NCBI RefSeq assembly: GCF_963921235.1
Contig: NC_086097.1
Span: 155,932,001-155,996,000 of the forward strand
Length of the DNA: 64,000 nt
Reading direction: 5' to 3'
DNA from: Mobula hypostoma
Lineage: Eukaryota
Part shown: piece after piece, positions 1-64,000 of the stretch
Position numbering within the stretch: the first letter of the stretch is position 1
Layout: the number at the start of each line of letters is the position of its first letter
The notes under the pieces: generated by a model
What the model was told of the DNA's origin: nothing
The model's input: only the letters and a program-made list of their open reading frames with translations
The model's database searches: none
Translations under genes and position numbers: made by a program

Positions 1-599
1 TTTAAGATGATTGCTGGTACCTTCAAATTCTTTATAGTTTCTAACTTGCCGAAGTAGTGAAATTATTTCATTTTTGCTCCTGGCCATTTCTGGCATCTCA
101 ACGAATGAATGCTCAAAAACACAGTGAGCAAAACAGTTCTGAATTGTCTTATTGCTTATATCTCACTAACTAACTGTGACAAAAATCATTGCTTTTTGAA
201 CACAAACACAAACAAATGACAAACGAGAAAATGTGCAGATACTAGAAATCCAAGCAACACACACAAAATGCTGGAGGAACTCAACAGGCCAGGCAGCAGC
301 TATGGAAGAGTACAGTCGACATTTCAGGCCGAGACCCATCATCGAGACACTGACGTTATTTAAAAACTGTTGATTCTGACAGCAGTGTAGTGTCTAACAG
401 CCACACAAGTGCATGTAACTAACACTAGTTAGAGGCTGTTCGGCAACAGTCTCCCATCCCAGTTAAGCAGCCTGTAGTGTCCCAAATAAACCAAGGGAAT
501 TCTGACTATTTTCTCAATTAGTTTGTGTCCTTTAAGAGTTGTTCCAAAGAAGTGGCTGCCCCAACTAACCAATGGCCCAATTAATCGGAATCTACTGTA
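1..599. mobile_element. Right end of a non-autonomous TcMar (Tigger-like) DNA element; left end outside the window
   Basis: Ends ...GGCCCAATTAATCGGAATCTACTG followed by TA (598-599), i.e. a CAGTA-type terminus with a TA target. No ORF. Interrupted by a PLE fragment at ~219-348. Only one end is visible. Confidence 0.45.
219..348 (-). mobile_element. Penelope-like element 3'/pLTR fragment with decayed hammerhead motif
   Basis: CACACAAAATGCTGGAGGAACTC...GGCCAGGCAGCA..., shared with the GIY-YIG-linked termini elsewhere in the window. Minus strand reads ..CGATGA-TGGGTCTCGGCCT-GAAA-TGTC-GACTG (313-348). Confidence 0.75.
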
Positions 600-5324: not shown

Positions 5325-7762
5325 TTGGAATGTATGCGGGATGGTTTTTTGAACCAACATGTCGAGGAACCAACTAGAGAGTAGGCTATTCTGGACTGGG
5401 TTTTGAGCAATGAGGAAGGGTTAATTAGCAATCTTGTCATGAGAGGCCCCTTGGGTAAGAGTGACCATAATATGGTGGAAATCTTCATTAAGATGGAGAG
5501 TGACATAGTTAATTCAGAAACAAAGGTTCTGAACTTAAAGAGGGGTAACTTTGAAGGTATGAGACGTGAATTAGCTAAGATAGACTGGCAAATGACGCTT
5601 AAAGGATTGACGGTGGATATGCAATGGCAAGCATTTAAAGGTTGCATGGATGAACTACAACAATTGTTCATCCCAGTTTGGCAAAAGAATAAATCAAGGA
5701 AGGTAGTGCACCCGTGGCTGACAAGAGAAATTAGGGATAGTATCAATTCCAAAGAAGAAGCATACAAATTAGCCAGAGAAAGTGGCTCACCTGAGGATTG
5801 GGAGAAATTCAGAGTTCAGCGGAGGAGGACAAAGGGCTTAATTAGGAAGGGGAAAAAAGATTATGAGAGAAAACTGGCAGGGAACATAAAAACGGACTGT
5901 AAAAGCTTTTATAGATATGTAAAAAGGAAAAGACTGGTAAAGACAAATGTAGGTCCCCTGCAGACAGAAACAGGTGAATTGATTATGGGGAGCAAGGACA
6001 TGGCAGACCAATTGAATAATTACTTTGGTTCTGTCTTCACTAAGGAAGACATAAATAATCTTCCAGAAATAGTAGGGGACAGAGGGTCCAGTGAGATGGA
6101 GGAATTGAGGGAATTACATGTTAGTAGGGAAGTGGTGTTAGGTAAATTGAAGGGATTGAAGGCAGATAAATCCCCAGGGCCAGATGGTCTGCATCCTAGA
6201 GTGCTTAAGGAAGTAGCCCAAGAAATAGTGGATGCATTAGTGATAATTTTTCAAAACTCGTTAGATTCTGGACTAGTTCCTGAGGATTGGAGGGTGGCTA
6301 ATGTAACTCCACTTTTTAAAAAAGGAGGGAGAGAGAAACCGGGGAATTATAGACCGGTTAGCCTAACGTCGGTGGTGGGGAAACTGCTGGAGTCAGTTAT
6401 CAAGGATGTGATAACAGCACATTTGGAAAGCGGTGAAATGATCGGACAAAGTCAGCATGGATTTGTGAAAGGAAAATCATGTCTGACGAATCTCATAGAA
6501 TTTTTTGAGGATGTAACAAGTAGAGTGGATAGGGGAGAACCAGTGGATGTGGTATATTTGGATTTTCAAAAGGCTTTTGACAAGGTCCCACACAGGAGAT
6601 TAGTGTGCAAACTTAAAGCACACGGTATTGGGGGTAAGGTATTGGTGTGGGTGGAGAATTGGTTAGCAGACAGGAAGCAAAGAGTGGGAATAAACGGGAA
6701 CTTTTCAGAATGGCAGGCGGTGACTAGTGGGGTACCGCAAGGCTCAGTGCTGGGACCCCAGTTGTTTACAATATATATTAATGACTTGGATGAGGGAATT
6801 AAATGCAGCATCTCCAAGTTTGCGGATGACACGAAGCTGGGTGGCAGGGTTAGCTGTGAGGAGGATGCTAAGAGGATGCAGGGTGACTTGGATAGGTTGG
6901 GTGAGTGGGCAAATTCATGGCAGATGCAATTTAATGTGGATAAATGTGAAGTTATCCACTTTGGTGGCAAAAATAGGAAAACAGATTATTATCTGAATGG
7001 TGGCCAATTAGGAAAAGGGGAGGTGCAACGAGACCTGGGTGTCATTATACACCAGTCATTGAAAGTGGGCATGCAGGTACAGCAGGCGGTGAAAAAGGCG
7101 AATGGTATGCTGGCATTTATAGCAAGAGGATTCGAGTACAGGAGCAGGGAGGTACTACTGCAGTTGTACAAGGCCTTGGTGAGACCGCACCTGGAGTATT
7201 ATGTGCAGTTTTGGTCCCCTAATCTGAGGAAAGACATCCTTGCCATAGAGGGAGTACAAAGAAGGTTCACCAGATTGATTCCTGGGATGGCAGGACTTTC
7301 ATATGAAGAAAGACTGGATGAACTGGGCTTGTACTCGTTGGAATTTAGAAGATTGAGGGGGAATCTGATTGAAACGTATAATATCCTAAAGGGATTGGAC
7401 AGGCTAGATGCAGGAAGATTGTTCCCGATGTTGGGGAAGTCCAAAACGAGGGGCCACAGTTTGAGGATAGAGGGGAAGCCTTTTAGGACCGAGATTAGGA
7501 AAAACTTCTTCACACAGAGAGTGGTGAATCTGTGGAATTCTCTGCCGCAGGAAACTGTTGAGGCCAGTTCATTGGCTATATTTAAGAGGGAGTTAGATAT
7601 GGCCCTTGTGGCTACGGGGGTCAGGGGGTATGGAAGGAAGGCTGGGGCGGGGTTCTGAGTTAGATGATCAGCCATGATCATAATAAATGGCGGTGCAGGC
7701 TCGAAGGGCCGAATGGCCTACTCCTGCACCTATTTTCTATGTTTCTATGTTTCTATGTTTCT
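5325..7762 (+). mobile_element. 5'-truncated young CR1 LINE
   Basis: Uninterrupted ORF2 remainder, short 3'UTR with a hairpin (GGCC-GAAT-GGCC) and a (TTTCTATG)n octamer tail at ~7734-7762. Confidence 0.95.
5403..7658 (+). CDS. CR1 ORF2: end of APE endonuclease plus complete reverse transcriptase (751 aa open frame, 5'-truncated)
   Basis: Motifs SDHN (APE end), KSPGPDG, NYRPVSLTS, YLDFQKAFDKVPH, GVPQGSVLGP, FADD, RPHLEY, FFTQRVVNLWNSLP. The TTG start is an artefact of truncation. Confidence 0.9.
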   Translation: MSNEEGLISNLVMRGPLGKSDHNMVEIFIKMESDIVNSETKVLNLKRGNFEGMRRELAKIDWQMTLKGLTVDMQWQAFKGCMDELQQLFIPVWQKNKSRKVVHPWLTREIRDSINSKEEAYKLARESGSPEDWEKFRVQRRRTKGLIRKGKKDYERKLAGNIKTDCKSFYRYVKRKRLVKTNVGPLQTETGELIMGSKDMADQLNNYFGSVFTKEDINNLPEIVGDRGSSEMEELRELHVSREVVLGKLKGLKADKSPGPDGLHPRVLKEVAQEIVDALVIIFQNSLDSGLVPEDWRVANVTPLFKKGGREKPGNYRPVSLTSVVGKLLESVIKDVITAHLESGEMIGQSQHGFVKGKSCLTNLIEFFEDVTSRVDRGEPVDVVYLDFQKAFDKVPHRRLVCKLKAHGIGGKVLVWVENWLADRKQRVGINGNFSEWQAVTSGVPQGSVLGPQLFTIYINDLDEGIKCSISKFADDTKLGGRVSCEEDAKRMQGDLDRLGEWANSWQMQFNVDKCEVIHFGGKNRKTDYYLNGGQLGKGEVQRDLGVIIHQSLKVGMQVQQAVKKANGMLAFIARGFEYRSREVLLQLYKALVRPHLEYYVQFWSPNLRKDILAIEGVQRRFTRLIPGMAGLSYEERLDELGLYSLEFRRLRGNLIETYNILKGLDRLDAGRLFPMLGKSKTRGHSLRIEGKPFRTEIRKNFFTQRVVNLWNSLPQETVEASSLAIFKRELDMALVATGVRGYGRKAGAGF

Positions 7763-10227
7763 AATACAATTACATGTCCTGGTACCGTAAAAATGTAAAA
7801 TGACATAACCTGTTTAGCAAGATTGAAAATCCTTTTTAAGATTGTTGGTGATTTTTTAAGATTATTTGCTCATTCCTGAGATGTGACTACCATGGAAATG
7901 CCTGTCTATTGTATATTCTGAATGCCCTCAAACTGAGAGGACATTTGTAAATCAGGCCTAAACGCAGGAAGACAATCTAGGTTATTCTGGGTGAGGACAG
8001 CAGGTATCCTTTATTTAAGAAAGTGAGTGAATCTGATAGATTTGTACCAAATTCTGAAGTTCCATGCTTATTGGTAGAGAGACTATATCTCATTTCAGTT
8101 TTATTTAGTTACTTCAGTTTTAAATTTCACAGCTGCCGTAAACAGACTTTAATTCATACCTCTCAGTCAAAGGTTGATTACCAGGTGCTGTGGGTTTTTC
8201 AATGTAACTGCTTGACAGTGGTAAAATCTGCATTAGTTACAATCTTGATTAATAATTTGAATGAAGGGATTGAGTGGGCAAAAAGCTGGTAGATGGAATA
8301 TAATGTAAGAAAATGTGAGGTTACCCATTTTGAAAGAAAAGTGTAAAAATGATAAAGTTCAAGGATAATAGGGATAATCCTGCGAACTACAGATTTATTT
8401 CAGTGGTGGGCAAATTCAATGTTCAAAGTTCAAAGTAAATTTATTATCCAAGTACATATATGTCACCATATACAACACTAAGATTCATTTTCTTGTGGGC
8501 ATACTCAATAAATCCATAATAGAATAAATAAAAGACCTCACCAACTGGGAATTCAATCAGTGTGCAATGTATGCAAATACAAACTGCATATACAAAAGGA
8601 AAGAAGTAATAATAATAAATAAACAAACAATAAATATCAAGAACATGAAATAAAGAGTGCTTGCAAGTCTGTCTATAGGTTGTGGGAACATTTCAACGAT
8701 GGGGGAAGTGAAGCTGAGTAAAGTTATCCCCTTTGGTTCAAGAGCCTAATGGTTGAGAGGTAGTTAACTGTTTCTCTTGTTCCTGATGGCAGCAGCGAGA
8801 AGACTGCATGACCTGGGTTGTAGGAGTCCCTGATGATGGATGCTGCTCTCATGCGACAATGCTTTATGTAGATGTGCTCAGTGGTGGGAAGAACTTCACC
8901 AGTTATGGACTTAGCCATATCCATTATTTTTTGTAGGATTTTCCATTCAAAAGTATTGGCGTTTCCATTCCAAGTTATGATGCAGCCATTCAATATACCC
9001 TCCACCATATAACTATAGAAGTTTTAGATGTCATGTCAAATCTTTGCAAACTCCTAAGGATTTAGAGGCGTTGCAATACTTTCTTCATAAGTGCACTTAT
9101 GTGCTGGACTAAGGGCAGGTCCTATGAAATGATAACACCGAAGAATTTAAAGTTGCTGACTCTCTCCACCTCTGATCCTCCAATGAGAACTGGCTTATGG
9201 ACCTCTGGTTTCCTCCTCCTGAAGTCAACAGTCAGCTCCTTGGCCTTATTGACATTGAATGAGAAGTTGCTGTTGGAGCGTCACTCGGCCAGTTCTTCAA
9301 TTTCCCTCCTATATATTGACTCATCATCCCCTTTCATTTGGCCAATGACAATGGTGTCATCAGCAAACTTGAAAATGGCATTGGAGTTGTGTTTAGCCAC
9401 ATAGTTATAAGTGTAAAGTGAATAGAGCAGCAGTTTAAGTACACAGCCTTGTGGTGATAGAGGTTGTGGAGGAGGATTGTTGCCAATCTTTACTGACTGG
9501 GATCTGAAAGTGAGGAAATCAAGGATTCAATTGCACAAGGAGATATTGAGGCCATAGTGTTGAAGTTTATTCGTAGTTTTGACAGGATGACAGTATTGAA
9601 TGCCCATTTGTAGTTGATAAAGAGCATCCTGATATCTGCATCTTTGTAGTCCACCTGTGCCAGGGTTGAGTGAAGAGCCAATGACATGCCATCTGCTGTG
9701 GACCTGTTTCACCGGTAGGCAAATTGGAGCAAATAACAGACACTTCTAAGGCAGAAGTTGATATATTTCATCACTAAACTCTCAAAACACTTCTTCACTG
9801 TGGGTGTAAGTGCTACTGGACAACAGTCATTGAGGTAGGTTGCCACGTTCTTCTTAGGCACTGGTATAAGTGGAGCCTGCTTGAAGCAGGTGGATACCTC
9901 AGGCTGCTGAAGCCAGAGGTTAAAGATCTCAGTGAACACTCCACCCATTTGATCAGCGCAGGTTTTTAGTTATTGACCAAACACCCTGTCTGGGCCAGAT
10001 GTTTTTTGTAGCTTCACCCTCCGGAAGGATGCTCACACCTTGGCCTCTGAAAATGAAATCACAAGGTCATCGGAGCTGTAGGGGCTTGTGATGGTTCCTC
10101 CAATCAGAGTGAGCATAGAAGGCATTGAGCTCATCTGGAAGCAACACCCTGTTATTGCCTATGTTGCTTAATATTACTTGATAAGAGGTGATAGCATTCA
10201 AGCCCTGCCAGAACTGTTGAGCATCCT

Positions 10228-10460
10228 GGGCAACACACACAAAATGCTGAAAGAACTCAGCAGGCCAGGCAGCATCTATGGAGAAGAGTAAACATTCAAC
10301 ATTTCGGGCCGAGCCCCCACATGAAGACCCTGATGAAAGGTCTCTGCCTGAAAAGTTGACTGTTTACTCTTTTCCATAGAGTCTGCCTGGCCTACTGAGC
10401 TCCTCCAGTATTTTGTGTGTGATGTTTTGGATAGCCAGAATATGCAGATTTTCTAATGTT
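10228..10460. mobile_element. Fold-back (palindromic) PLE-terminus insertion with 13-bp TSD
   Basis: Inverted arms of the PLE terminus. TSD TGTTGAGCATCCT at 10215-10227 and 10461-10473. Confidence 0.85.
10325..10362 (+). ncRNA. Degenerate minimal hammerhead ribozyme
   Basis: CTGATGA (10330-10336), stem II AGG/CCT, GAAA (10350-10353), then AGTT-GACTG. Stem I and stem III are damaged. Confidence 0.6.
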
Positions 10461-10983
10461 TGTTGAGCATCCTTCATTAATTTAAGTTTAATCCAGAATT
10501 GCCTCTTCAACAATTAGATGGCTTTCCGGAGATCATACCTAGATCTCTTGTAACTTTCTTGGTCACCAGACTTGAATGCCTCTGATCTGACCCTCAGATC
10601 TGATTCATCCAGGGGTTCTGGTTGGGGAAGACTGAATGATCTTTTGGGGACACACTCATCTACAACTGTTTTTAAAATGTCCGTGATGACTATGGTGTAT
10701 TCATTCAGATCCACAGATGAGTCCTTGAACATGACCCAGTCCACGGACTTGAAACAATCTCATAGCTATTCCTCGGTTTACTACGACCACCTCTTTGTTG
10801 TCCTAATCTCTGGAGCTTTGCTCTTTAGGTTCTGCCTGTACGCAGGTAGGAGAAGGACAGCCAAGTGATCAGATTTCTGGAAACACATTCTGAGCATAGA
10901 ACAGTTGGCATTCCTTATCTTAGTTTAACAGTGGTCTTGTGTGTTGAGACCTCTGGTGGTTCAGGTTATATCTTGATGGTAAC

Positions 10984-12055
10984 CACGAGAAATCCTAAGC
11001 AACAGACACAAAATGCTGGAGTTCAGGCAGCATCCATGGAAATGTAAGAAATCGACGTTTTGGGCTGAGATCTTTCTTCAGGACTGGAAAGGTACAGGGA
11101 AGATGCCAGAATACCAAGGTAGGGGGAGGAGAAGGAAGATAGCTAGAAGGTGATAGGTGAAGCCAGGTTTGGTAGGAAAGGTAAAGGGATGGAGAGAAAG
11201 GAATCTGGTAGAAGAGGAGAGTGGCCCATAGGAGAAAGGGAAGGTGATAGGCAGGTGAGAAGAGGTAAGAGGCCAGAATGAGGAATAGAAGAAGAGGGGA
11301 GGGGAAGGGAATTTTTTATTACTGGAAGAAGAAATTGATATTCATACCATCAGGTTGGAGGCTAGTCAGACAGGATATAAGGTGTTACTTCTCCAACTTG
11401 AAGGTGGCCTCATCTTGGCACAAGAGGAGACTATGGACAACATGTTGGAATGGGAATGGGAATTGGAATTCAAACATTTGGCCTTCGGAAGTTCCGCTTT
11501 AGGCAGATGGAGCTGAGGTGCTTGACAAAGCGAACCATAATTTACCATGGGTTTCAAAAATGTAGAGGAGGCTGCATTGGGAGCATCGGCCACAATAGAC
11601 GACATCAGCAGATTTGCAGGTGATATGTTGCCTCACCTGGAAGGACTAATTGGTGCTCAAAATGCAGGTGAGGGAGGAGGTAAATGGTCGGGTGTAGAAT
11701 GGCTGCTTGCAGGGATAAATGCTGGGAGAGAGATTAATGGGGGGGGCGGAATGAATGGACAACGGAATCATGGAGGGAGTGATCCCTGTGGAATGCGGAG
11801 GTGGGGCGGGGGGGGGAGGTAAAGATTTGTTTGGTGGTAGGATTCCTTTGGAGATGGTGGAAGTTGTGTAGGATGGTGTGTTGGATGCAGAGGCTCATGG
11901 GGTGGTAGGTAAGAATAAGAAGAACTCTATCACTATTAAGGCGGCGGGAGGGTAGGGTGAATGCAGATGTTCAGGAAATGGGGGAGATTCGGCTGAGGGC
12001 AGCATCAATGGTGGAGGAAGGAAAATCCCGTTCTCTGAAGGAGGATCTCTCTGAT
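10984..12055 (-). mobile_element. PLE 3' fragment with GIY-YIG remnant
   Basis: Minus strand encodes decayed ..HSHSNM..CQDEATFKLEK..LQPDGMNI and ENGIFLPPP / GFSFLHH regions. Terminus carries CAGTC-CTGAAGA...AAAA-CGTC (11049-11086). Confidence 0.75.
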
Positions 12056-14274: not shown

Positions 14275-14592
14275 CTCATTTTCTACTCTGGCCTTTCACC
14301 TTTTCTCTCCCACCTATCACTTCTCCCTGGGCCCTTCCTCCATCTCTTTCTGCTTCAATCCACTCTCCTCTTCTATCAGTTACCTTCTTCTCCAGTCCTT
14401 TATCTTTCCCATCCACCTGGCTTCACCTATTACCTTCCAGCTAGCCTCTTTCCCCTTCCCCGAGCTTCTTATTCTGGTGCTTTCCCCCTTCCTTTTCAGT
14501 CCTGAAGAGAGGTCTCAGCCTGAAGTGTTGACTGTTTGTTCAATTCCACAGATGCTGCCTGACCTGCTGCTCCTCCAGCATTTTGTGTGTGA
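14275..14592 (+). mobile_element. PLE 3' fragment inserted in the chromovirus
   Basis: Pyrimidine-rich UTR, then CAGTC-CTGAAGA-GAGGTCTCAGCCT-GAAG-TGTT-GACTG (14497-14534) and CTCCAGCATTTTGTGTGTG. Confidence 0.75.
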
Positions 14593-27822: not shown

Positions 27823-27849
27823 TTGCTTCAAATGAATTCAAGGTGACTC

Positions 27850-29150
27850 CAATTCTCAGAGCTACCTGGACTATTCCTCTTCCCATCCTGTCTCTTGCAA
27901 AAATGCCATCCCCTTCTCACAATTCTTCTGTCTCTGCCACATCTGCTCTCAGGATGAGGATTTTCATTCCAGGACAAAGGAAATGTCCTTTTTTAAAGAA
28001 AGGGGCTTCCCTTCCTCCACCATCAACTCTGCTCTCAAACGCATCTCTCCCATTTCACGCACATCTGCTCTCACTCCATCCTCCCGCCACCCCACTAGGG
28101 ATAGGGTTCCCCTTGTCCTCACCTACCACCTCACCAGCCTCTGGGTCCAACATATAATTCTCCATAACGTCTGCCACCTCCAATAGGATCCCTCCACTAA
28201 GCACATCTTTCCCTTCCCCCCCCCCCCCCGGCTTTCTGCTTTCCACAGGGATCGCTCCCTATGCGACTCCCTTGTCCATTCGTGTCCCCCCCCATCCCTT
28301 CCCACCGATCTCCCTCCCAGCTCTTATCCTTGTAAGCAGAACAAGTGCTACACATGCCCTTACACTTCCTCCCTCACCACCATTCAGGGCCCCAGACAGT
28401 CCTTCCAGGTGAGGCGACACTTCACCTGTGAGTCAGCTGGGGTGATATACTGCGTCCGGTGCTCCCGATGTGGCCTTCTATATATTGGTGAGACCCAACA
28501 CAGACTGGGAGATCATTTCGCTGAACACCTACGCTCTGTCCGCCAGAGAAAGCAGGATTTCCCAGTGGCCACACATTTTAATTCCACATCCCATTCCCAT
28601 TCTGATATGTCTATTCATGGCCCCCTCTACTGTCAAGGTTGGAGGAACAACACCTTATATTCCATCTGGCTAGCCTCCAACCTGATAGCATGAACATTGA
28701 CTTCTCCAACTTCCGTTAAAGCCCCCCTCCCCTTCTTACTCCATCTCTTATTTACTTACTTACTTATTTATTTATCTATTTATTTGTTTGTTTGTTTATT
28801 TATTTATTATTTTTTCCCTTTTTTTCTCTCTCTGTCCCTCTCACAATAACTCCTTGTCTGCTCTCCATCTTCCTCTGGTGCCCCCGTCCCCATTTCTTTC
28901 TCCCTAGGCCACCTGTCCCATGATCCTGTCATATCCCTTTTGCCAATCAACTTTCAAGCTCTTAGCTCCATCCCTCCCCCTCCTATCTACTCCTATCATT
29001 TATGATCTCCCCTCCCCTCCCACTTTCAAATCTTTTACTATCTCTTCTTTCAGTTAGTCCTGGCGAAGACTCTTGGCCAAAAATGTCGACTGTGCTTCTT
29101 CCTATGGATGCTGTCTGGCCTGCTGCATTCCACTAGCATTTTGTGTGTAT
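27850..29150 (+). mobile_element. PLE 3' half (RT thumb, GIY-YIG, UTR with TTTA repeats, terminus)
   Basis: FFKERGFPSSTINSALKR..RVPLVLTYH and a GIY-YIG ORF. Terminus with decayed hammerhead TAGTC-CTGGCGA..AAAA-TGTC-GACTG (29055-29092). Confidence 0.88.
28409..28693 (+). pseudogene. GIY-YIG endonuclease domain of a PLE (frameshifted at the 3' end)
   Basis: FTCESAGVIYCVRCSRCGLLYIGETQHRLGDHFAEH..PVATHFNSTSH: VIY...YIGET signature with CxxC and conserved His residues. Confidence 0.85.
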
Positions 29151-30865
29151 GGCTTCAATTCTTTGACATTTATGGAATGGGTTTTCAGAAGCAGATTGGG
29201 TTACATTGACATATATAGCCATGGGCACCTTTCCATATCTAATGACTTCAGTGAATATCTGGAGAGTTACATAAGGTAGGTTTGAACTAATATTGTATGC
29301 AACATTTTCAACTAAAATCAAAACAGTTGCCAATGCATTTTTACACCAGTTTAATCAGAATAAAATACTTGAAAAGAAGAAAGTAGATAGCATAAATAAT
29401 TCATTTATTATGTTGGTATGTTGTTCACAGAAAGGTAGCTAAAGCTCTTGTTTATGGAATAAATGTCTCTGTTTTTGTTTTCTACCAGAGATATTAACTT
29501 CCATCCATCTTTCTGCAGCTGAAAGCATAAGCAAATAATACTAAACTGATCAGATAGTCAAGATAAAACCATTCAATTTTCTCAACTGGACACATGCTTT
29601 ACAAAGTTCAGAAGGGGTGACAGAAATTCAACTGAACCATATTAAATATTTTCAATTTTTTAAAAATTCAGATTATCCCTGAAATAAAATATTCTAATGT
29701 GCGATTATATGCTTAAGATAAAGTGAATGGATTTAGTTTATAAAGAATATGGAATGATTTGAACTTCATTAAAATATCATGACACTACTATTTTTTTTCC
29801 AGTGACATGACACATTTCAGAACACAGGTGCCATTTCCACCTGTGACGTGAGGGCAGGCTACGACAAAGAAATGTAACACTCCGGGTAATTGCTGTACCG
29901 CTGCCTTTATCAAATCACCAGAGTCAAATGCTACTGTCACATCAGCATCTTTAAAATTTATTCATGCCTAATACTGGTGTCAGAAAGACTCCAGAAGTTG
30001 AAGGAGGTAAAGTCCCCAATGTAATGCATCAGTCATTTTTGTACCCTGCATCTTGTACCACTTCATTCTATTTAAATGACAGTATTATAAACACAGTGAC
30101 CCAAACTTTGCAGTCAGCACTGAGCTCTTCTAACTTGCCACTGATTCCCAAAAAAACCTGTTCTTACTTGCAAAGCATTGTTTCTTCAGCTGGAACATTG
30201 GAAGTGGATGGCTCCATCCATCATGGCAAGCACAGAAAGTTCCTTGTCACAATCATACAAGGGGAAGTCAGAAAAATGCCTGCCCATTAAACAGCTGGAA
30301 CACTTTGACAAAGAGCTCAGCCATGCCCTGAGGTTTGTTTGCTGTCAAAGCTGCCAAAACATTCGTATGCATTTAAGGATAATAAAAAATTTGTCAAACT
30401 AATGAAATATCTTAATGCTATCAAGATGGGTAAAAGGGAAACAAAAAAATGTGAAGACTGCTTGAAATCCTAAAAGAAAGAAAATAAAACAAGTTTAGAA
30501 CATTGCAGTTAGTAAGGTTAATTAAGATTACTACACAACTAAAAGTTATGCTCAGTGAGATAAACAGAAGAATTTTTTGCAAGATCTTACGAATTGGCGG
30601 AGGAGTTATGAGGGAACAAATGGACTAATGCTGTTTTGATTTAATGCTCTGTTTTCCTCAATAGTTCAAAACCAATTATATAGACACCTACTGGAACATT
30701 AAAAATCCATATAGCCATAATTCTGAACTGCATTAAGAACTTCTTCCGAATTCTAAGAGTTACACAAAGTGGTCTCATTAGAAATTAAGTCTTTGTGGAA
30801 ATGTATTTGTGTTAAATGCAAAGCACTAACCACATTTTGAAGAAGTAGCTAATCCCATTGACGAA

Positions 30866-33495: not shown

Positions 33496-34520
33496 TTTTA
33501 TCACTGCAAAATCAAAACAGGACAATATCTGCTATAGGTAGTTCCCTTGGCAACTAGTGAAGGGATTAAGATCAAATGTGGCTGGATGTAAATGCAACAT
33601 CAGTGAGTAAGTCAAATGATCCTCTTTATCCATCTACTTATTCAGTTTTGACCTGGCAAGTAGAGTTCAAATCAAACTGTTCACAAAATTACCATAATTT
33701 GCTGACAAAACTGCATCATTTTAATGAGATATGTTGGTGTTTTTGTGGGCAGTAACAGATTATTTTGGTGAAGTATTAAGTACTTTGGATAAAATGAGAT
33801 AATAACATTGCACAATTTGGGCCAGGACAGGACAATAATCATTTTGACGTGACTTGGAAAGGACAGATCAATGGGAAGGTGAAAACAGCCTTTCAATTGC
33901 AAAATTGATATCCTTCACCATCATAGGCCTCGTAAACTAAAAACATCAATATATCAGGTGGCTTCATTTAGAAGAACTTTTTGCTTATATTATATTCCAA
34001 TTGTTGTTTATGAATAATTGTTAGGAAGATGCAAATAAGCAGAAATAGAATTCAAGTATGTTCAAAATGCCATCAGTAGTAAGCTAATGCATAAGGCACT
34101 TTAAGCTGTTTTGTGATATTATAGAAGAATTCAGTAGATGGAGCTATACACCAAGGTAAAAGTAAGTGTTGATCATAATTTAATTTTCATCCTCATGTCA
34201 AATCATCAGTTTGTCCTAATGGCTATACACTATTTGTTAAAAATTAATGTTTTGCTTCTATTATTAAGATAAAAATAAGGGTATGCTCCAGAGTTTATAT
34301 TAACAATCTTCAAATGACATCTTTGCACAAGAATGAGCAACACACAAAATTCAACTAATATCATTAAATCTTGTGAAAATAAAAATGATAATAAGGTATT
34401 TTAGTATCTCAGCCTCAACTGGCTGTTATTTATCCAAAGGGGTTCAATGCAAATTGATTGTACTGTCATACTGAGTCATACAGCACAAAATGATCCCTTC
34501 AGAACACCATGTCTATGCTG

Positions 34521-34741
34521 TACATATAAAATGCTGGAGGAGCTCACAGGCCAGACAGCATCTATGGGAAAGAGTAAACAGTCGATGTTTCAAGCCGAGA
34601 CCCTTCATTAGGAGTCCTGATGTAGTCTTGGCCCGAAACATCGACTGTTGACTCTTTTCCATAGATGCTGCTTGGCCTGCTGAGTTCCTCCAGCATTTTG
34701 TGTGTGTTGTTTTGATTTCTACCATTGCAGGTTTTCTCTCG
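34521..34741. mobile_element. Fold-back PLE-terminus insertion with ~15-bp TSD
   Basis: Inverted arms meet at AGGAGTCCT (~34610-34618). TSD ACCATGTCTATGCTG (34506-34520) / ACCATGCCCATGCTG (34742-34756), 2 mismatches. Confidence 0.85.
34613..34647 (+). ncRNA. Degenerate minimal hammerhead ribozyme, back-to-back with a minus-strand copy at ~34579-34615
   Basis: Plus strand AGTC-CTGATGT-AGTCTTGGCCC-GAAA-CATC-GACT. Minus strand CTAATGA-AGGGTCTCGGCTT-GAAA-CATC-GACTG. Confidence 0.6.
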
Positions 34742-35287
34742 ACCATGCCCATGCTGACCTTTTTGCTCATCTACGCAAATCCCATTTAACCACAAGAGAG
34801 CAAGATTCTTCTGTGTCCAATCTATTAGTACTTTCTAAATGCCTCTAAATGTAGAGATTGCACCTGATTTCTCCAACTCCTCTAGCAAAGAGTTCCAGAT
34901 ATCAACCACTCTCTTTCCCCTTTGATCCCCTTTAAAACTCCTTCCTCTCACTTTGAAATCTTACTTCATTGTTTTTGATATCCCTGTCATGAGAAAAGAT
35001 TTTAAAATATACTGCATTAGTCCTCTCATAATTTTATAGGTCAGGTGACCTCACTGCTTCCTTCACACCAGGATAAGCAAAGTCTTGCCTATCCAGTTTC
35101 TTCTGAAAGTAAAAGTCCATGTAGCAACCTGCTGAATCTCCTATTGTACTCTTTCCAGTCAACCTCATACTATGGTGATCTAAATTACCCATAATATTGC
35201 AAGTCCTGTCTAGCCAATGTTTTATAAAGTGAAACATAACCTCTGAACTGTTGTATTCTATGCTCTGACCTATGAAGAAGAATCCCA

Positions 35288-36480: not shown

Positions 36481-38243
36481 GCATTCTTCACTATCCTATC
36501 TACCTGTATTGCCACGTTCAGGGGCATGAGCCCCAATGCCCTTTTGTTCATCAGTACTCCTCAGTACCATATGCCATATCTGTGTCTTATTTCCCTGAAT
36601 GCATCTCCTCACATTTGCTGGGATCTGCCGTCATGCCAATCAACTTTCCATCAGATCTATATCCTGCAACAGCTTCAACCTTCCTCATTTCCATTAATTT
36701 TTAATGTCATCCACAACCATACCTCCTAAACTCACATCCAAGCCTAATAATATATATCTCAAACATCAAAAGCCCCAGCACATTTCCTTGGTGTCACAGA
36801 CCTCCAATCAGAAAAAAAATCCTTCCATCACCACTCTCTGTCTCCTCTCACCAAGCCAACTGTGGATTCAATTAGCCTTAGATCCAATCTATCTTTATGC
36901 TAATTCCCTCTAATAGGAGGCCTAAAGTATAACCCAAAAAAGTGATTGCATTTCTCTTATTTCTTGATGCAATGGGTATGGCTTCATAGCTTGATTCTTC
37001 TAATACTTTCTTCTAAGTACCATTATATTTTCCTTAATCTGTTGTACACCTGCCCTTTCTCCTTTGCAACACTCTCTATCACATCTAGAACTTTTATGCC
37101 CCAGAATATTAAACTAAAGACGTGCCTTTCCCTCGGCAATAATATTGTAATTTCAGGTGCTGATCCATGCTCTAAACTCATCTGATTTGCCTGTGAGATT
37201 CTGTGCATTAAGGTAAATGCAAATGAATATTAACAGCCCTCACATATTTCCTAATCTGTACAAACAAGAGAAAATTTGCAGATGGTGAGAAATCCAAGCA
37301 ACACACACCAAAATGCTGGAGGAACTCAGCAGGCCAGGCAGCATCTATGGAAAAGAATAAACACTTGACCACATTTCAAACTGAGACCCCGCATCAGGAC
37401 TGGAAAAAATAATGAGAAGTTAGAGCAAGAAAAGGGGAGGGGAAGAAAAAGTACAGGGTGGTAAGTGGTAGGTGAAATCAGGAGGAGGAGGGTGAAATAA
37501 AGAGCTGGGAGGTTGGTAAGTGAAAGAGGAAAAGGGGCAATCTGATAGGAGATGGTAGAATATGGAAGGCCAGGTGGAGTAGAGGGAGATTATGGGCAGG
37601 TAAGGAAATAAGGTGAGAGAAGGAAATGGGATTGGGGGAATGGTGAAGGAGGAGGGGACAATTACCAGAAGTTTGAGAAATCCATGTCCATGCCATCAGT
37701 TTGGAGGATACCCAGACGGAATATAAGGTGTTGCTCCTCCCACCTGAGTGTGGCCTCATCACAGTAGCAGGGAAGGCTGTGGAGTGACATGTCGGAATGG
37801 GAATGGGAAGCAAAATTGAAGTGGGTCCCCACTGGGAAATTCTGTTTTTTCTGGTGGATGGAGCATAGGTGCTTGGAGAAGCAGTCTCCCAATCTATGTC
37901 GGATTTACAGGAGGCCAGGCTGGGAGCACCAGATACAGAAGATGACCCGTACAGACGCAGAGGTGAATGTTGCCTCAGCTGGAAGAACTATTTGGGGCCC
38001 TGGATGGTACTGAGGGAGGATGTGTAGGGCCAGGTGTGGCAGTAGATGGGCTCACAAAGGTAAGTATCGGGAGGGCGATCAGTGGGGAGTTGCATAGGAA
38101 GTGACCCTGTGGAAAGCAGAAAAGTGGGAGAAAGGAAAAGTTGTGCTTGGTGATGGGATCTTGTTGGAGATGATGAAAGTTAAGAAGAATTATGTGCTGG
38201 ATGCGGAGGCTACTGGGCTGGAAGGTGAGGACAAGAGGAACCC

Positions 38244-38441
38244 TGTTGTGTACATAGCCTTTTTACACAACTATGTTATTAATAAAAATGCTGGAGACGG
38301 CAACTAAGTTTCAACGTTCTTTACTGGTAGAATCTGAACTTGGCACACACATACAGATCAATGCGCGCCTAATAGCACATGCAACCACATGTTACTAAAA
38401 CATAAAGTAGTCCCTTATTATAATGTAGGGTACACGGTACA
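38244..38441 (-). repeat. 3' LTR (198 bp)
   Basis: Direct repeat of 44205-44403. Adjacent polypurine tract AATAAAAGGGGAGGAG on the minus strand (38442-38457). Confidence 0.93.
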
Positions 38442-41400
38442 CTCCTCCCCTTTTATTTTAATAGTGTATCAACTTTTTTTTACTGGGGCACTATGCTAAA
38501 CTAATATTTTTACTATTAACATACAAATGCCTACCATTTGTTTACAAATTATAGCAAAGTAGCTTAATAATATCAAATTATAACAAGTCTTTTTTTCCTT
38601 TTGGTCTAAGACCCATTTAGAACTCAAGTCTCTGGGGAAGTCTTCTCTGCCTCTGCAGGTAACAACTGTCCTCAAATGTTTGCTTGGGGAATGAGTCTCC
38701 ACAGGTACGTCAGGTGGGTCATCAGCACTGATGACAGGCTTATCTGTAGGCGAGGCTGATGTGGTCACTTCAGGAGTGTTTGCTTTGCTTCAACGTCAGG
38801 GGAGTCCAGGCAAAGTGTTGTTGTGTTTTTCACCTGAGCATCCAGGATTTGGTCCACATGATGTCTCCATACGTTCTCTCCCACCCCCACTGTATACATC
38901 AGTGGCCCATCTATAGTGGAAATTGTACCCAGCTGCCACTTTTCAGTCTGGTAATCATGTGCAAGAACTGACTGTCCCACACTGAAGCTCCGTGTTGACT
39001 TAGCATTCAAGTGTTTGAACTGTCTTTTTTCCACATCACGCCGTACATCTGGTTTCAGAAGATCCATGCGGGACCTCAGATTCCTGTTTATAAACATCAT
39101 TGCTGGAGTCTGATTAGTGGTTGCATGTACTGCATTATGATAGGCAAGGAGGAAGTTGTCTATCTTTTGTTGCAGTGGTCGATTTTCACTGTCCATTGCC
39201 TTGGTGGCTTTCTTGAATGTCTGCACAAATCTTTCTGCCAAGCCATTTGCAGATGGATGGAAAGGGGCAGATGTAAAGTGCTTGATTCCATTGTTCTTCA
39301 TAAAACTTCGGAATTCTTCAGAGACAAATTGTCGTCCATTGTCTGTGCGGATTTGCTGTGGTATGCCATTCCTGGTGAACATGGCCCTCAGAACTGTAAT
39401 GGTCATTTCCGATGTGGTTGTCTTCATTTTGATGACCTCTGGCCATTTGGAATGTGCATTGACGGCGATTAAAAAGATAAGAGTCCATGAATGGTTTAAC
39501 AAAGTCGAAGTGCACTTGTTGCCATGGTGATGAGGGCTGCTCCCATAGATGGAGAGGGGCTTGTGATGGTGTGTCCTGGATCTTTTGACATCCAGAGCAG
39601 TTCTTGGTCAAGTCCTCAATCTGTTTATCAATTCCTGACCACCAGACATAGGCACAGGCAAGACTTTTCATCTTCGTGGTACCCAGGTGCCCCCTGTGCA
39701 GTTCCTCCAGCGCTCTGGTGTGTAGCTTGGGAGGAATCACAACTCGTGAACCACACATTACTGTTCCCCGACACACTGACAACTGCTCCTTCTTGGCTGA
39801 GAAGGCTGGAAACAGTGTGTTACCACATGTTGGCCATCCCTTTACCGTGATATCATACACTTTTGACAACATAGGGTCATTGCGTGTCTCTTTTTCAATG
39901 AGGCTGTTTGTTACTGGTAATTGTTCAACTATTGTGTGAAAGACCTCTGCTGAATCCATTTGTGTAGTTATCTCTGAAATCGGCAGTGGTAAATGTGACA
40001 AACCATCTGTGTTGCCATGTTGCTTGGTCACCTTGTGATCAATGTCATACATGTGACCCCCTAAGAAAAGGGACCATCACTGCAGCCTTTGTGCTGTCAT
40101 CACTGGAACACCTTTTCTTGGGTTGAAGATTGACATGAGAGGCTGATGGTCAGCCAAGAGGGTAAACTTTTGACCATACAGGTAGTGACTGAATTTCTTG
40201 ACTCCCCACATGAGGCTTGAGGCAAAGGCTATTGGTCTTTCGGAGCCATCTGGAAACTTGTGCGATAACACAGCTCCTACCCCATGGGGTGAAGCATCAC
40301 AAGCCAGTTGGATAGGTAAGGAGGGGTCAAAGTGCGCGAGCACCCCTTCCGGAGTTATGAGTTTTTTAGTTTCTTGAAACACTTTCTCACAGCTCTCAGT
40401 CCACTTCCATTGTGTCCCTGTTTGTAATAGTGCATTTAGTGGGTGTAGGACTGTGGACAGGTCAGGCAAGGCCTTATGGTAATAGTTCACTGATCCAAGA
40501 TAAGCTCTCAGCTCAGACACATTTTTGGGCGGTGGTGCCTTAAGCACTGCTTCTGTCTTGTCTTGAGACATGTGTAAGCCATCCTTGTTGATCACATGCC
40601 CACAGTATGAGATTTCCTTTTTGAAAAACTCACATTTCTGTCGATTAGCTCTGAGCCCATATTCTCGTCACCTGGTGAGCACTTGTTCAGGGCTAGAAAG
40701 ATGTTCGTCGTCGTCTTTTCCGGTGACAATGATGTCATCCAGGTAACACTGAGTCCCTGGAATCCCCTGCAGAACCTGGTCCATTGCCCTTTGTCAGATT
40801 GCAGCAGCTGATGCTATCCCAAACACCAACCTGTGGTACTGGTAAAGCACTTGGGGAGTATTTATTGTCAGGTATTTCCATTTGGAGATAAGCCTGGGCC
40901 AAATTGATTTTTGTGAAATGTTCCCCTCCTGACAGGGAAGCAAAGATGTCCTCAATACAAGGTAGCGGATGCTGTACTGTGCAGAGAATTGGGTTAACAG
41001 GGACTTTAAAGTCTCCACATATGCACACCTTGCTTGGGTTTCCTGGTTTTGTGCTGGAGGTTTTCTTCATCACTGGAAAAATAGGTGTGGTCCATTCACT
41101 CCAATCCACCTTTGACAGGACCCCAGTCTGCTCCAGATTTTTCAGCTCTGCCTCTACTGTAGGATGGATTGCATATGGCACTGGTCTGGCTTTGTGAAAT
41201 TTTGGACTTGCATTTTCCTCAATCTCAATCTTTGCCTTTACACCTGAAGTGTTCCTATTCCTTTTATGAACACTTCCTCAGAGTCAGCAAGTATTTGTGA
41301 CAGTCTCTCAGATGTAGCCTTGCTGCCCGCCTTTGCTGACACAACTAATGCCTTGATGGTGTGTCAATCCAACTGAATTTTCCTGAGCTATTCATGTCCC

Positions 41401-42372
41401 AGCAATGGTGGTCCTCCATTTTTGAGTACATAGAGATTCAGCTGCTGTGTTTTGTCTCCGTAGGTCATTGTCACTTTAATTTTGCCTTTGGGATGCACTT
41501 TCTGTCCTGTGTAAGTCTTTAGCAGTAGTTTAGTTCATTTCAGAGGTATGTGAGAAAACAGTCGTTTGTAGTTGTGTACAGAGATCACTGTTAAAGCTTA
41601 GCCTGTGTCCAACTCCATTTTCAGTCTCGCACCTGCCACTTGTGGAGTGATCCATATTACTCTTCGATCATCTGTCTTTTTCACGCTGTGAAGTTGCAGA
41701 CAAGACAATTCACTTTTGTCTGAGTCGTTTTCATCAGAACTGTTTTCTTTCATTTTGTGTACATTGTTGTATTTTCCTTTCTGGGGTTTCTTGTTTCTCT
41801 GCATTTTGTCCTTTTTCTGCTGTTTACTAGCTTTGCATACTCTGCCAGTGTGGCCCTGTTTGCCACAGTTTCTGAATTCTTTGTCTTTAAACCAACAGTC
41901 CTCAGGGTCATGTGACCTGTTCCCACAATGTTAACATTTCTTTCCTTCATTTCTGTTCAGTGACATTTTATTTGTAGCATATTCCAGAGAGTTTTGTTGT
42001 ATCTCTGAAGCACCCCGTGCTGCTATTTTCAATAATATTCCAACGTTCAGCGCCTTCTCTAATGTAAGGTCTTTTTCACACAGGAGCTTCCTCTGTGTGG
42101 TTTCACAGTACATGTCCCTCAATGTGTCTGATAGACCAGCTCCAAATTGACAATATTCTGATAATTTGCGCAATTCAGCACAATATTCAGAAATGCTTTC
42201 ATTTTTGCTCTGATTCCATTTGGGGAATTTAAATCTTTCAGCAATGACCAGTGGTTTGGGGTTTAAATGCTGTAGGAGAGTGTCTACTATTTGCTGGAAT
42301 GTTTTATCAGTTAGCTTTTCAGGGGTTAACAAGCTCCGTAGCAGCCCATATGTTTTTGCTCCCACTGGATAA

Positions 42373-43843
42373 GGCTACGTCCACACTAGACCGGATAATT
42401 TTGAAAAAGCCGGTTTCGCGTAAAAACGATAGGCATCCACACCAGGCATTTTTGAAAATACCTCCGTCCACATTAAAATGGGTATTTGGGTAAATCTCCT
42501 CCTACTGGGCATGCGCAGGACACATCTACAGAAAACAAGTGAAGAGGAAACGGTATACTTGGTGCGCGTTTGTCCGGTTACAGACTAGAAAAACTTAAAA
42601 GGACAAATGACAGACAGCTGTTGGCTCTCGCGCAGGAGGACTTAAAACTAAAAAAAACAAATACCGGAGCTTATGGAGGCAACTGACAGGGAGTTCATGG
42701 ACAGTATGACCCGGCTGGCGATGAACATTGAAAAACTGACTAACTCTGTCGCAGAGGGATTTGCAATGATGAGCAATATGATGGCTCCCCCCAAGTACTT
42801 TTCACCGCTACAATACCAGCCCCACAGTCACGACAATAGCTAAACATACGGACACACAGACCCCCGGTGGCCCCACCAGCATCTTCCCCACCCCCACAGA
42901 GGGCTCACCCTGGAAGCATTTCCTACAGCCATAGTCTCTTCACCGATGAAAGGGACGACAGCTACAACTAAATGCAATAAGGCTTGTTACTGGGCAAAAG
43001 TGAAATTTGCTGTTACCTCATTTGTTTACCTTTACTTTTGCCATGTCTTTCTGTATTATGTTGCTGTATTTAACACGTGCAATAAAACGAGTTACCGGGC
43101 AAAAGTGATTTTATTTTTACCTGAGTAAAAGTGAAACTTACAATTTTCCTTTTTTGGCCTTAACATTTTCACGTCTATGCCAAACATAAGCTACTACTTA
43201 AAAATGACATTTTGGAAGTAATGACAATTGCATCTATTGAATGTTTGCACAGGCAATACATTAAAAAATCACCTTGTTAAATGTATAAAACATGTCTGCA
43301 TCAGTATTATCTAGTATTTCCATACAATGTTACATTGGGCTGTTACTCATCTATTGTCAGATATCAAGCAACACACATCAAAGTTGCTGGTGAACACAGC
43401 AGGCCAGGCAGCATCTCTAGGAAGAGGTACAGTCGATGTTTCAGGCCGAGAACTAGAGATCTCTTCCTAGAGATGCTACCTGGCCTGCTGCGTTCACCAG
43501 CAACTTTGATGTGTGTTGCTTGAATTTCCAGCATCTGCAGAATTCCTCTTATTGTCAGATATTGATGTTGTGGTGTTGGAGGTTGTGTTGAAGAAAACAA
43601 TGAAATGCCGCGCTGCTACCACTATCGTTCCGGCGCGTCATGACAGTGTTTTTAAAAAGAGCCGGTTACCCTGTACACACTACACCGGCCATTAGGTGTT
43701 TTCAGATTTATTCACCCTGGAGAGCGTTTTTGAAAAGCTCCATTTTCGGGGGGAGGAAAACGTCATTTCAGTGTGGACAGAGGGTCAAAACGGAGAGAAA
43801 ATGCTTCGGTTGCAGATTTATCCGGTCTAGTGTGGATGTAGCC
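42373..43843. mobile_element. Non-autonomous PIF/Harbinger element (1471 bp including a nested insertion) in Gypsy gag
   Basis: 26-bp TIRs GGCTAC[G/A]TCCACACTAGACCGGATAA (1 mismatch). TAA TSD at 42370-42372 and 43844-43846. Confidence 0.92.
43365..43549. mobile_element. Fold-back PLE-terminus insertion with 13-bp TSD
   Basis: ~60-bp near-perfect inverted arms (CAAGCAACACACATCAAAGTTGCTGGTGAAC...). TSD TATTGTCAGATAT at 43352-43364 and 43550-43562. Confidence 0.9.
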
Positions 43844-44191
43844 TAAGGCGCTGGCTTTCTTTTCATCATTAACCCTATTAGCATCACAATATAACTCCAC
43901 GCTTTCAATGTAAGTTACCCAGTTTTCAATGCCACTATCAAATGATGTAATGGTTCCAATCATCGCCATCTTTGTTATGTTAGTTTAGTCCTGTTATTTC
44001 TTGTTTTCTTTTCAGCCAGCTCCTTGCAGTCACTGCACGTTCCACTTGTCTCACGTGTCCTTTTTGCTAGTGTAATGAGTGCACTCTGTCTAGATGTGTG
44101 TGTCTCTCCTTTTCATCTCCCTTCTCTCTCTTCTTCTTCGTGTCGTTATCAACTAAAACATGGCGTTCCGATAAGCTGTAGGTTCATAATT

Positions 44192-44201
44192 CTCGTCACC
44201 A
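44192..44201 (-). promoter_or_regulatory. Primer-binding site, probably for tRNA-Ser(GCT)
   Basis: TGGTGACGAG lies 3 nt inside the LTR. It is one CpG-type transition from TGGCGACGAG, the complement of the vertebrate tRNA-Ser(GCT) 3' end (..CTCGTCG-CCA). Confidence 0.7.
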
Positions 44202-44204
44202 ATT

Positions 44205-44403
44205 TGTTGTGTATGTGGCCTGTTTACACAACTATGTTATTAATAAAAATGCTGGAGACAGGAACTAAGTTCCATGGTTCTTTATTGGTAGAGTCCAAAC
44301 TTGACACACACATACGGATCAATACGCGCCTAATAGCACATGCAACGACGTGTTACTAAAACGTAAAGTAGTACCTTATTATAATGTAGGCTATATGGTA
44401 ACA
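44205..44403 (-). repeat. 5' LTR (199 bp)
   Basis: Direct repeat of 38244-38441; about 23 substitutions plus 1 indel by manual count. Confidence 0.93.
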
Positions 44404-45320
44404 AACCCTATCCCTGGTGGAGTGGCAGGAGGATGGGGTAAGGGCAGATTTGTGTGAAATGGAAGAAATGCAGGTGAGGGCAGCATTGATGGTGGAGGAA
44501 GGAAAGCCCCTTTCTTTGAGGAAGGAGGACATTTCTATGTAGTGTAGGAAAAGTTGAGGAGTGATACCAGTGAAGGATTGGAACATAGACTGTTCCATGC
44601 AACGAACAAAAAGGCAGGAATAGCTGGGGCCTATGTGAGTGCCCATGGCTACACCTTTGGTTGGAAGGAAGTGGGAGGAGCCAAAAGAGAAATTATTGAG
44701 AATGGTGACCAGTTTCACCAGACAGAGGAGAGTTGTGGTTGGGTCTGTTGTCTAAAAAGAGTGGAGAGCTTTAAGGGTCTCTTGATGGGGCATGGAGGTG
44801 TTTGGGGACTGGACGTCCACGGTGAAAATGAAATGATTGGGGCCAGGAGCTTGCGATCATTGAAAAGATCAATGTCATGTGATGTGTCACCGATGTAGAT
44901 AGGAAGGGACTGAACTGGGGAAGATGAAACAGAGTTGAGGTATGTAGATATAAGTTTGGTGGGGCAGGAACAAGCATAAACAATGAGTCTACCTGGAGAG
45001 GAAGGTTTGTGGATCTCGGGTAGGAGTTAGAAACAGGAAGTGCAGGGTAAGGAAACTATGAGGTAGGTAGCAGTGGACGGGAGATACCCAGAGTTAATAA
45101 GGTCAGTGATGGTGCATGGAACAATGGCCTGGTGTTCCTTAGTGGGGTCCTGTTCGAGGGGTGAGAAAGAGGAAGTGCCTGAGAACTGTCTCTTTCAGCT
45201 ATCAAATTCCCAGCTCTTTACTTCACCTCTCCATCTCTCCTGGTTTTACCTATTACCTACCACCTTGTACTTCTTCCTCCCCTCCCCCCATCTTCTTGCT
45301 CTGACTCCTCATCTTTTTTC

Positions 45321-45358
45321 CAGTCCTGATGAAGGGTCTTGGCCCAAAACATTACCTG
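45321..45358 (+). ncRNA. Degenerate minimal hammerhead ribozyme in a PLE pLTR
   Basis: CAGTC-CTGATGA-AGGGTCTTGGCCC-AAAA-CATT-ACCTG. The core GAAA is mutated to AAAA at a CpG. Confidence 0.65.
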
Positions 45359-45624
45359 TTTTCCCTTTTCCATATATGCTCCCTGGCCTGCTGCTTTCCT
45401 CCAGTATTTTGTATGTTCCTAATCTGCCTCTGTCTGCCCTACATACTAGGCTCGTAGACCAATCCGCAACATCGGAGTCATATTAAATAATTACTCTAAT
45501 CTTCACCTTTAGTGTGTGTCATTTGAACCTGAACAGAAACACAACATATAACTAATGAACAATTGCTTTCATAAGTCGATAGAAAGAAAGCAGAAAATAA
45601 AATAAAAAGTGAGACAGAACTGTC

Positions 45625-62518: not shown

Positions 62519-62520
62519 AT

Positions 62521-63483: not shown

Positions 63484-63556
63484 AAAACTTACCGGAACCT
63501 ACCCTGGCCTCTGCCTGTTCTCGCCGAAGCCTGTTGAACCAAAGCCGTCCCACTCT

Positions 63557-64000
63557 GATGAAAACAGACAGGATCTCCCAGTAGCCACCCACTTCAACTC
63601 TGCCTCCCACTCCCATTCAGATATGTCCATACATGGCCTCCTCTACTGCCATGATGAGGCTAAACTCAGATTGGAGAAGAAACACCTCATATACCATCTA
63701 GGTAGTCTCCAGCCCCTTGGTATGAACATAGAATTCTCCAACTTCCGGTAATTCCCTCCCCCTCCCTTCCCCTATCCCTATGTCACCCTGCCCCCTCCCC
63801 CAGTTGCCTATCACCTCCCTCATGGTTCCGCCTCCTTCTACTACCCATTGTGTTTTCCCCTATTCTTTCTTCACCTTTCCTTCCTATCACCTCCCTGCCT
63901 CCCCTTCCCCCACCCCTTTATCTTTCCCCTTACTGGTTTTTCACTTGGAACCTACCAGCCTTCTCCTTCCCACCCTTTCCCCACCTTCTATATAGGGCCT
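63557..64000 (+). mobile_element. PLE fragment (GIY-YIG C-terminus plus pyrimidine-rich UTR), running off the window
   Basis: QDLPVATHFNSASHSHSDMSIHGLLYCHDEAKLRLEKKHLIYHLGSLQPLGMNIEFSNFR. Confidence 0.85.

Follow-up and report, generated by a model that had tools for sequence, protein, structure and literature searches.

Short head-to-head insertions of a Penelope-like element in a ray genome, and a modestly supported breakpoint hotspot at the edge of its hammerhead motif

In the 64,000-nucleotide stretch of Mobula hypostoma DNA that we analysed (hereafter the window), a 233-bp insert at 10228-10460, here called A, consists of two ends of a Penelope-like element (PLE) paired head-to-head. We consider insert A to be probably a heavily shortened two-armed insertion of an abundant PLE, assembled anew in one integration. 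Such short inserts, for which we use the word minis, are the shortest form of a known two-armed PLE pattern whose plan is already published; only the tendency of short copies to end at the outer edge of the ribozyme is left without an explanation.

The sequence TGTTGAGCATCCT stands exactly at both 10215-10227 and 10461-10473 and forms a 13-bp target-site duplication (TSD) around insert A, with a chance probability of ~1e-5 when 30x30 offsets are allowed for. The arms are 84% complementary over 86 nt (10231-10316 against 10339-10424), and the RNA fold of the insert reaches -124.7 kcal/mol (z -14.6), a value that none of 200 shuffles equalled. When the insert and one TSD are removed, the minus-strand frame of the host LINE runs uninterrupted across the site, and since the frame closes over the empty site, the repeat is a true target duplication in the LINE. 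A first-pass annotation of this DNA had described two inverted PLE termini in a 233-bp insert with a perfect 13-bp TSD, which agrees with these results. The arms are unequal, one being tailed and the other tail-less. An assembly artefact was ruled out, as the arms are only 80-97% alike and TSDs are present, and classification of the minis as a MITE was ruled out by the unequal ends, the tail and the link to a PLE ORF. Protein searches for spurious ORFs spanning the junction gave no candidate, and pattern scans of metagenomes gave no matches.

The host had been named a Rex1 LINE. That it is a LINE stands, given the closing frame and its RT-like features, while the family name is plausible only: the element fits features of Rex1, and a paralogue at 22006-22820 (67% identical) has a match to ALKBH8_N/PF09004, a domain that we take to be a mark of Rex1, just below the curated cut-off (E 5e-4, 20 against 21 bits). 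The same host LINE is cut 500 bp from insert A by an older second PLE copy (F; 10980-12245, minus strand, tail partly deleted), and 2 kb beyond F a tail-less arm (G; about 14266-14592) faces away. No TSD shared by F and G was found; a single joint unit was rejected on that ground, and we counted the two as separate loci. Elsewhere in the window, in a LINE at 61526-63498 and 59726-61220 (both minus), ORFs for endonuclease and RT come after one for a GDSL/SGNH esterase, and related RT ORFs lie at 5385-7658, 19888-20871 and 24275-25309.

The terminus belongs to a PLE, since it follows the GIY-YIG coding sequence at 27848-28765; such a sequence also precedes it in a long copy described below. In a protein search, this piece matched Hypanus sabinus and Mobula hypostoma proteins at 81-83% identity and sea-urchin proteins at 44-47% (12 matches among 170 candidates). 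The Atlas puts it with GIY-YIG clusters (0.96; the family is on 13-40% of members), and the Pfam GIY-YIG match reaches only E 0.03. The translation of 27953-28765 contains a CX2-5CxxC linker Zn finger and a CCHH motif with two cysteines inside GIY-YIG, which are the features that define Neptune/Nematis (PMC8557442). By the definitions given there, and judged from its translation, the window element is a C-terminal-endonuclease PLE of the Neptune/Nematis type. In longer copies, coding sequence, pyrimidine-rich stretch and terminus follow each other in this order. A further PLE ORF end with a pyrimidine-rich tract occupies 63560-64000, where the window stops short of the hammerhead.

The terminus contains the parts of a hammerhead, namely the helix I 5′ strand CAGTC, the core CTGATGA, a short helix II, GAAA, a loopless ACGT replacing helix III, the cut site GTC, and GACTG. 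By inspection of the aligned copies it reads as a minimal type I hammerhead, matching the class described in PMC4209133; Rfam gave no matches to the motif. In the remnant in insert A, CTGATGA (10330-10336) and GAAA (10350-10353) can be recognized, whereas the equivalent of the cut site, after 10357, is mutated and the helix I 5′ strand is clipped by the junction. A profile search with the terminus found 13 arms at nine loci in the window (E < 1e-17; the next match had E 0.11). The features discussed here are collected in the table.

Table. Features in the window (A, B and C, minis; D, solo arm). Arm starts are numbered so that the base after CAG in CAG/TCC is +1 and the cut site lies after +30.
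Feature	Positions	Strand	Remarks
Host LINE, decayed RT-bearing non-LTR element, Rex1-like	8700..10984	-	split by A; bounds approximate
A, left TSD (13 bp)	10215..10227	.	exact repeat
A, inverted tail-less pLTR arm	10228..10328	-	5′ end -1 relative to CAG/TCC; hammerhead core decayed
A, tailed pLTR arm	10329..10460	+	5′ end +2; final 30-40 nt are the tail
A, minimal type I hammerhead remnant	10329..10362	+	from sequence, compared with PMC4209133
A, right TSD	10461..10473	.	exact repeat
B, mini two-armed insertion	34506..34756	.	TSD 34506-34520 / 34742-34756
B, tail-less arm	34521-34613	-	
B, tailed arm	34614-34741	+	
C, mini two-armed insertion, other subfamily	43352..43562	.	exact 13-bp TSD (insert 43365-43549)
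C, tail-less arm	43365-43451	-	starts at +14
C, junction insert, 9 nt	43452-43460		8 nt identical to 43467-43474, 14 nt downstream
C, tailed arm	43461-43549	+	starts near +39
D, solo tailed arm	224..348	-	starts about -1
Best-preserved PLE coding 3′ part (linker Zn finger, GIY-YIG), then the same terminus	27848..29179	+	
Long two-armed insertion	37248..45426	.	exact 11-bp TSD 37248-37258 / 45416-45426
Long copy, tailed arm and PLE RT/GIY-YIG coding sequence	37259 to about 45125-45190	-	
Long copy, tail-less inverted arm	about 45190-45415	+	starts ~130 nt upstream of the hammerhead

Two further examples that had been noted at 34521 and 43365, here B and C, follow the plan of insert A: TSD, tail-less inverted arm, junction, tailed arm, TSD. 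The TSD of B is 15 bp with two mismatches (13/15 identical) and that of C is identical at 13/13 positions. All three minis contain pLTR parts only and are 185-233 bp long. In A, B, C and the long copy alike, the outer end of the tail-less arm touches the TSD and maps to the same place to within ~10 nt; the tailed ends of these insertions lie 30-40 nt beyond the tail-less ends. In C, the 9-nt patch at the junction resembles what we take to be templated insertions of microhomology-mediated end joining. Neither a partner arm nor a TSD was found for D, and among the remaining arms no TSD was found for E and only weak candidates for H. An inverted adjacent 5′-truncated copy, a one-sided 30-40 bp tail and TSDs of variable length (13, 15, 13 and 11 bp) are all present, as in published EN+ PLEs, and together with the link of the terminus to a GIY-YIG ORF they bear out the earlier attribution of the inserts to a PLE with an inverted, truncated pLTR.

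The long copy (37259-45415) measures 8.2 kb and still carries PLE coding sequence. As it has the same plan, the minis represent the short extreme of a size range that is already published. An LTR element at 38244-44403 (TG...CA ends, 5-bp TSD, LTRs 88% alike, integrase and RNase H ORFs) splits the long copy, and mini C sits inside the LTR element. This three-level nesting at 37248-45426 gives a relative age order and indicates that the plan formed at different times; the same two-armed plan arose in different subfamilies and at different lengths as well.

Five of the 13 arms, from three of the nine loci, start at -2 to +2, ~30 nt upstream of the cleavage site. They are the arms of A (-1 and +2, with no shared base), those of B (+1 and -1, with one shared base, so that -2 is possible) and D (about -1, or alternatively -4 with a small insertion), and none of them clearly extends past -2. 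The other loci include six arms (E, F, G, H, I and J) that run far upstream of the hammerhead edge. The earlier claims that the arms end within the hammerhead and that the ribozyme is a breakpoint hotspot are therefore partly upheld: A and B keep the whole core region and end in the helix I 5′ strand, and only C breaks inside the motif. The clustering is found at the motif's 5′ edge rather than at the cleavage site. Ends set by hammerhead cleavage were rejected for the same reason, A, B and D starting ~30 nt upstream of the cut and only the right arm of C starting 7-9 nt downstream. Microhomology was likewise rejected as a driver in A and B, where zero or one base is shared.

A hotspot at the hammerhead 5′ edge is modestly supported. 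In simulations, three of nine loci fell within 6 nt of each other anywhere with a probability of 0.014 under a log-uniform null, and of 0.17, 0.026 and 0.002 when truncation lengths were exponential with means of 100, 300 and 1000 nt; this test is post hoc and null-dependent, and rests on three minis and nine loci. If truncation lengths were short (mean 100 nt), the p value of 0.17 would fit inversion with 5′ truncation at random positions, and small numbers together with the selection of short copies would then account for the clustering seen at the edge. That eight of the 13 arms start elsewhere and every junction is unique also fits this explanation, which we nevertheless consider quite improbable in view of the p values of 0.002-0.026 under the three other nulls and of the starts of solo arm D and of one contig from outside the window at the same few bases. 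The latter contig, from another organism, has a junction one base shorter than that of A (among the matches listed, 12 of 69).

What limits the copies at this edge can be considered from the longer copies. In all six long copies (near 4560, 11085, 14498, 29056, 37401 and 45322), a pyrimidine tract ends in YAG exactly at the hotspot; like the corresponding sequence of D. virilis Penelope, the tract and YAG could act as an intron acceptor that has been conserved. In five of the six, the start site also fits YYANWYY, a low-information motif that we take to be initiator-like. The AG at the hotspot also belongs to helix I, so its conservation cannot choose between a start of the RNA at this place and an intron acceptor. 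In D. virilis Penelope, transcription starts 46 nt before a 75-nt intron, ~120 nt upstream (PMC2377424), and the end of this intron maps to helix I (PMC4209133). As the D. virilis RNA does not start at helix I, this counts against the reading as an RNA start and favours the acceptor reading. The long-copy arm that starts at about -130 resembles the upstream start in D. virilis, but no upstream exon is present in A, B or D.

Our preferred explanation, de novo assembly of each mini, would run as follows. The GIY-YIG endonuclease would nick the two strands at a stagger of 11-15 bp, as suggested by the TSD lengths. The RT would then prime on both nicked strands, using two internal start sites on the RNA, the tailed site for one strand and the tail-less site for the other, and so produce tailed and tail-less ends. 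Both cDNAs would often stop at a common limit, CAG/TCC, at the hammerhead 5′ edge (near -1), and their ends would be joined with the loss of 0-3 nt in A and B, and with deeper loss or resection and a templated patch in C. The limit could be common because the template RNA begins there, to which we give a nearly even chance, or, with a lower probability, because the RT stalls at the pyrimidine tract or AG. Self-cleavage plays no visible part in the formation of the minis, and we predict that the resulting hairpin, with its ribozyme buried, gives rise to no further copies.

Several observations bear on de novo assembly. The three junctions all differ, as it predicts, and the tail-less outer ends are fixed near one place, as a second fixed start site predicts. 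The PLE protein PAc, a predicted dimer, was shown in vitro to nick both strands, to extend both and to begin synthesis at two internal sites of the RNA, which delimit the tail (PMC11167929). On the other side, the start site of PAc on the RNA is reported to be AC-rich, and its counterpart here is GU-rich when read on the hammerhead strand. Also against de novo assembly, C lies off the hotspot and six of the 13 arms pass it. A more specific version, which we regard as rather unlikely, is a paired ‘strong-stop’, in which a PLE dimer would prime both strands from two sites in the 5′ repeat, both cDNAs would run off the RNA 5′ end at the hammerhead edge, and some junctions might be re-amplified.

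The two arms might instead derive from a single cDNA that stops near the hammerhead 5′ edge and then self-primes, or whose RT switches strand, to copy the mirror arm. Self-priming is the view preferred in PMC3846280 for palindromes at PLE junctions; the breakpoint lies on a small quasi-palindrome, CAG-TC-CTG, and both arms of one copy belong to the same subfamily (those of C share 14 non-majority variants, and those of the long copy share one variant that is absent from 10 others). However, priming on the quasi-palindrome predicts one fixed junction, and the junctions of A, B and the outside contig differ, with 1-3 extra bases and 0-1 shared bases. Nor does fold-back by itself account for the constant end point of the mirror arm, 30-40 nt short of the end of the first arm. 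While we judge such a fold-back unlikely, the sequences of A, B and C fit either twin priming or cDNA fold-back, and the two cannot be told apart from them.

The first-pass annotation had proposed that the minis might be a discrete non-autonomous hairpin or ribozyme family (retrozyme- or SINE-like), whose transcripts the PLE protein would re-insert in full. A and B are of similar length with near-identical break positions, a near-identical junction occurs in the contig of another organism, and non-autonomous PLE derivatives exist (PMC8557442; bioRxiv 10.64898/2026.07.22.740005). Nonetheless, a discrete self-propagating family is not supported here and is, in our view, very improbable. None of the three pairs among A, B and C has identical junctions (a small sample), the minis belong to two subfamilies of different age, and the long, ORF-bearing copy has the same plan. 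No lineage of left arms is seen either: the left arms of A and B differ at 19/91 positions, compared with 14/90 and 15/91 for the cross pairs and 18/92 and 12/89 for their own partners, a comparison of only two comparable copies over ~90 columns. Every arm of A, B and C is defective in at least one of core, helix I and cut site, and each strand has one minimal hammerhead, which needs a tandem partner (PMC4209133). Pair probabilities for helices I and II were 0.00 in the two hairpin strands tested, which is weak evidence as the decayed arms alone give 0-0.19. In addition, retrozymes form head-to-tail arrays and the minis are head-to-head, and a hairpin copied from RNA should vary at its outer 5′ end, which is fixed here. 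With only three minis, a subset may still have been re-amplified.

The annotation had further reasoned that this density would imply very many hairpins, and the arithmetic is fair: three per 64 kb correspond to 47 per Mb, with a Poisson 95% range of 10-137 from one window. Contigs matching the terminus numbered ~101,000, 87,000 and 99,000 in three DNA runs from three organisms, which reflects abundance only and not copy number, and 10,613 contigs matched in a further run, guessed to be RNA. The reference for contig matching was the one-armed copy at 37230-37680, whose own indels broke alignments at 37309 and 37363. Among the joints listed (15 of 164), 13 are head-to-tail repeats and two are skips, with no strand change. 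Many contigs have head-to-tail partial tandems of the terminus, which are candidate dimeric hammerheads or retrozyme-like arrays.

The way in which PLEs acquire their inverted ends is a recognised problem (PMC8557442), and inverted Penelope repeats are a source of siRNA in flies (PMC3681739). If the density holds, read-through would yield many hairpins of 60-100 bp. If the ‘strong-stop’ version were true, ray genomes would preserve tens of thousands of such products, from which the PLE transcript start and the integration pathway could be read base by base, and some junction types might be a re-amplified hairpin family that supplies the host with dsRNA. Our literature search, outside which lay subscription papers, Repbase and supplements, found no report of a hotspot at the hammerhead edge or of ray PLE minis; the supplements of PMC11167929 (genomic ends) and bioRxiv 10.64898/2026.07.22.740005 (cartilaginous-fish families) may bear on novelty. 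Alone, the single decayed insert A adds little; what value remains lies in the hotspot, where traces of PLE integration can be counted. In a genome rich in minimal products with a sharp breakpoint, such counts would allow twin priming, fold-back and an RNA start to be distinguished.

In the twin priming of L1, two target strands prime on one RNA, which leaves an inverted 5′ part inside one TSD. The minis differ from this in that the inverted part of L1 is an upstream stretch of the RNA, whereas the minis copy the same stretch twice and so form a palindrome. PAc, a Poseidon element of Anolis, has in common with the proposed mechanism the two internal RT starts that explain the presence or absence of a tail, and the nicking and extension of both target strands (Frangieh et al. 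2024, PMC11167929). It belongs to a different clade from the element here, which has the linker Zn finger of Neptune/Nematis, and inverted products were not reconstituted with it. The same study reports that hammerhead mutants insert normally and that no RNA-seq reads end at the cut site; that cleavage is dispensable agrees with a hotspot that is not at the cleavage site.

Metazoan PLEs have minimal hammerheads of type I in the terminal repeat, with no real helix III and a palindromic 15.2-16.2, as here, and in Schistosoma pairs of them lie on opposite strands 100-700 bp apart (Cervera and De la Pena 2014, PMC4209133). Relative to what we could consult of that work, the present analysis adds junctions and TSDs, and all copies here are decayed. 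Non-LTR retrozymes are also non-coding and pLTR-derived, carry type I hammerheads and occur in vertebrates, including the one cartilaginous fish sampled; by definition they comprise two or more units in head-to-tail order, all with complete hammerheads (bioRxiv 10.64898/2026.07.22.740005), whereas the minis are head-to-head, single-unit and decayed, and thus lie outside this definition. The closest match is to the insertion units of EN+ PLEs, which have an adjacent inverted 5′-truncated pLTR and a one-sided tail of 30-40 bp (Arkhipova et al. 2013, PMC3846280; Craig et al. 2021, PMC8557442). The published TSDs are 8-10-bp long (PMC3846280; PMC8557442). These units share with the minis the head-to-head arms, the tail at one end, the variable TSD around the whole unit and the occurrence of long and short versions, and the minis differ from them in consisting of pLTR parts only, in their length of 185-233 bp and in having several 5′ ends at the hammerhead edge.
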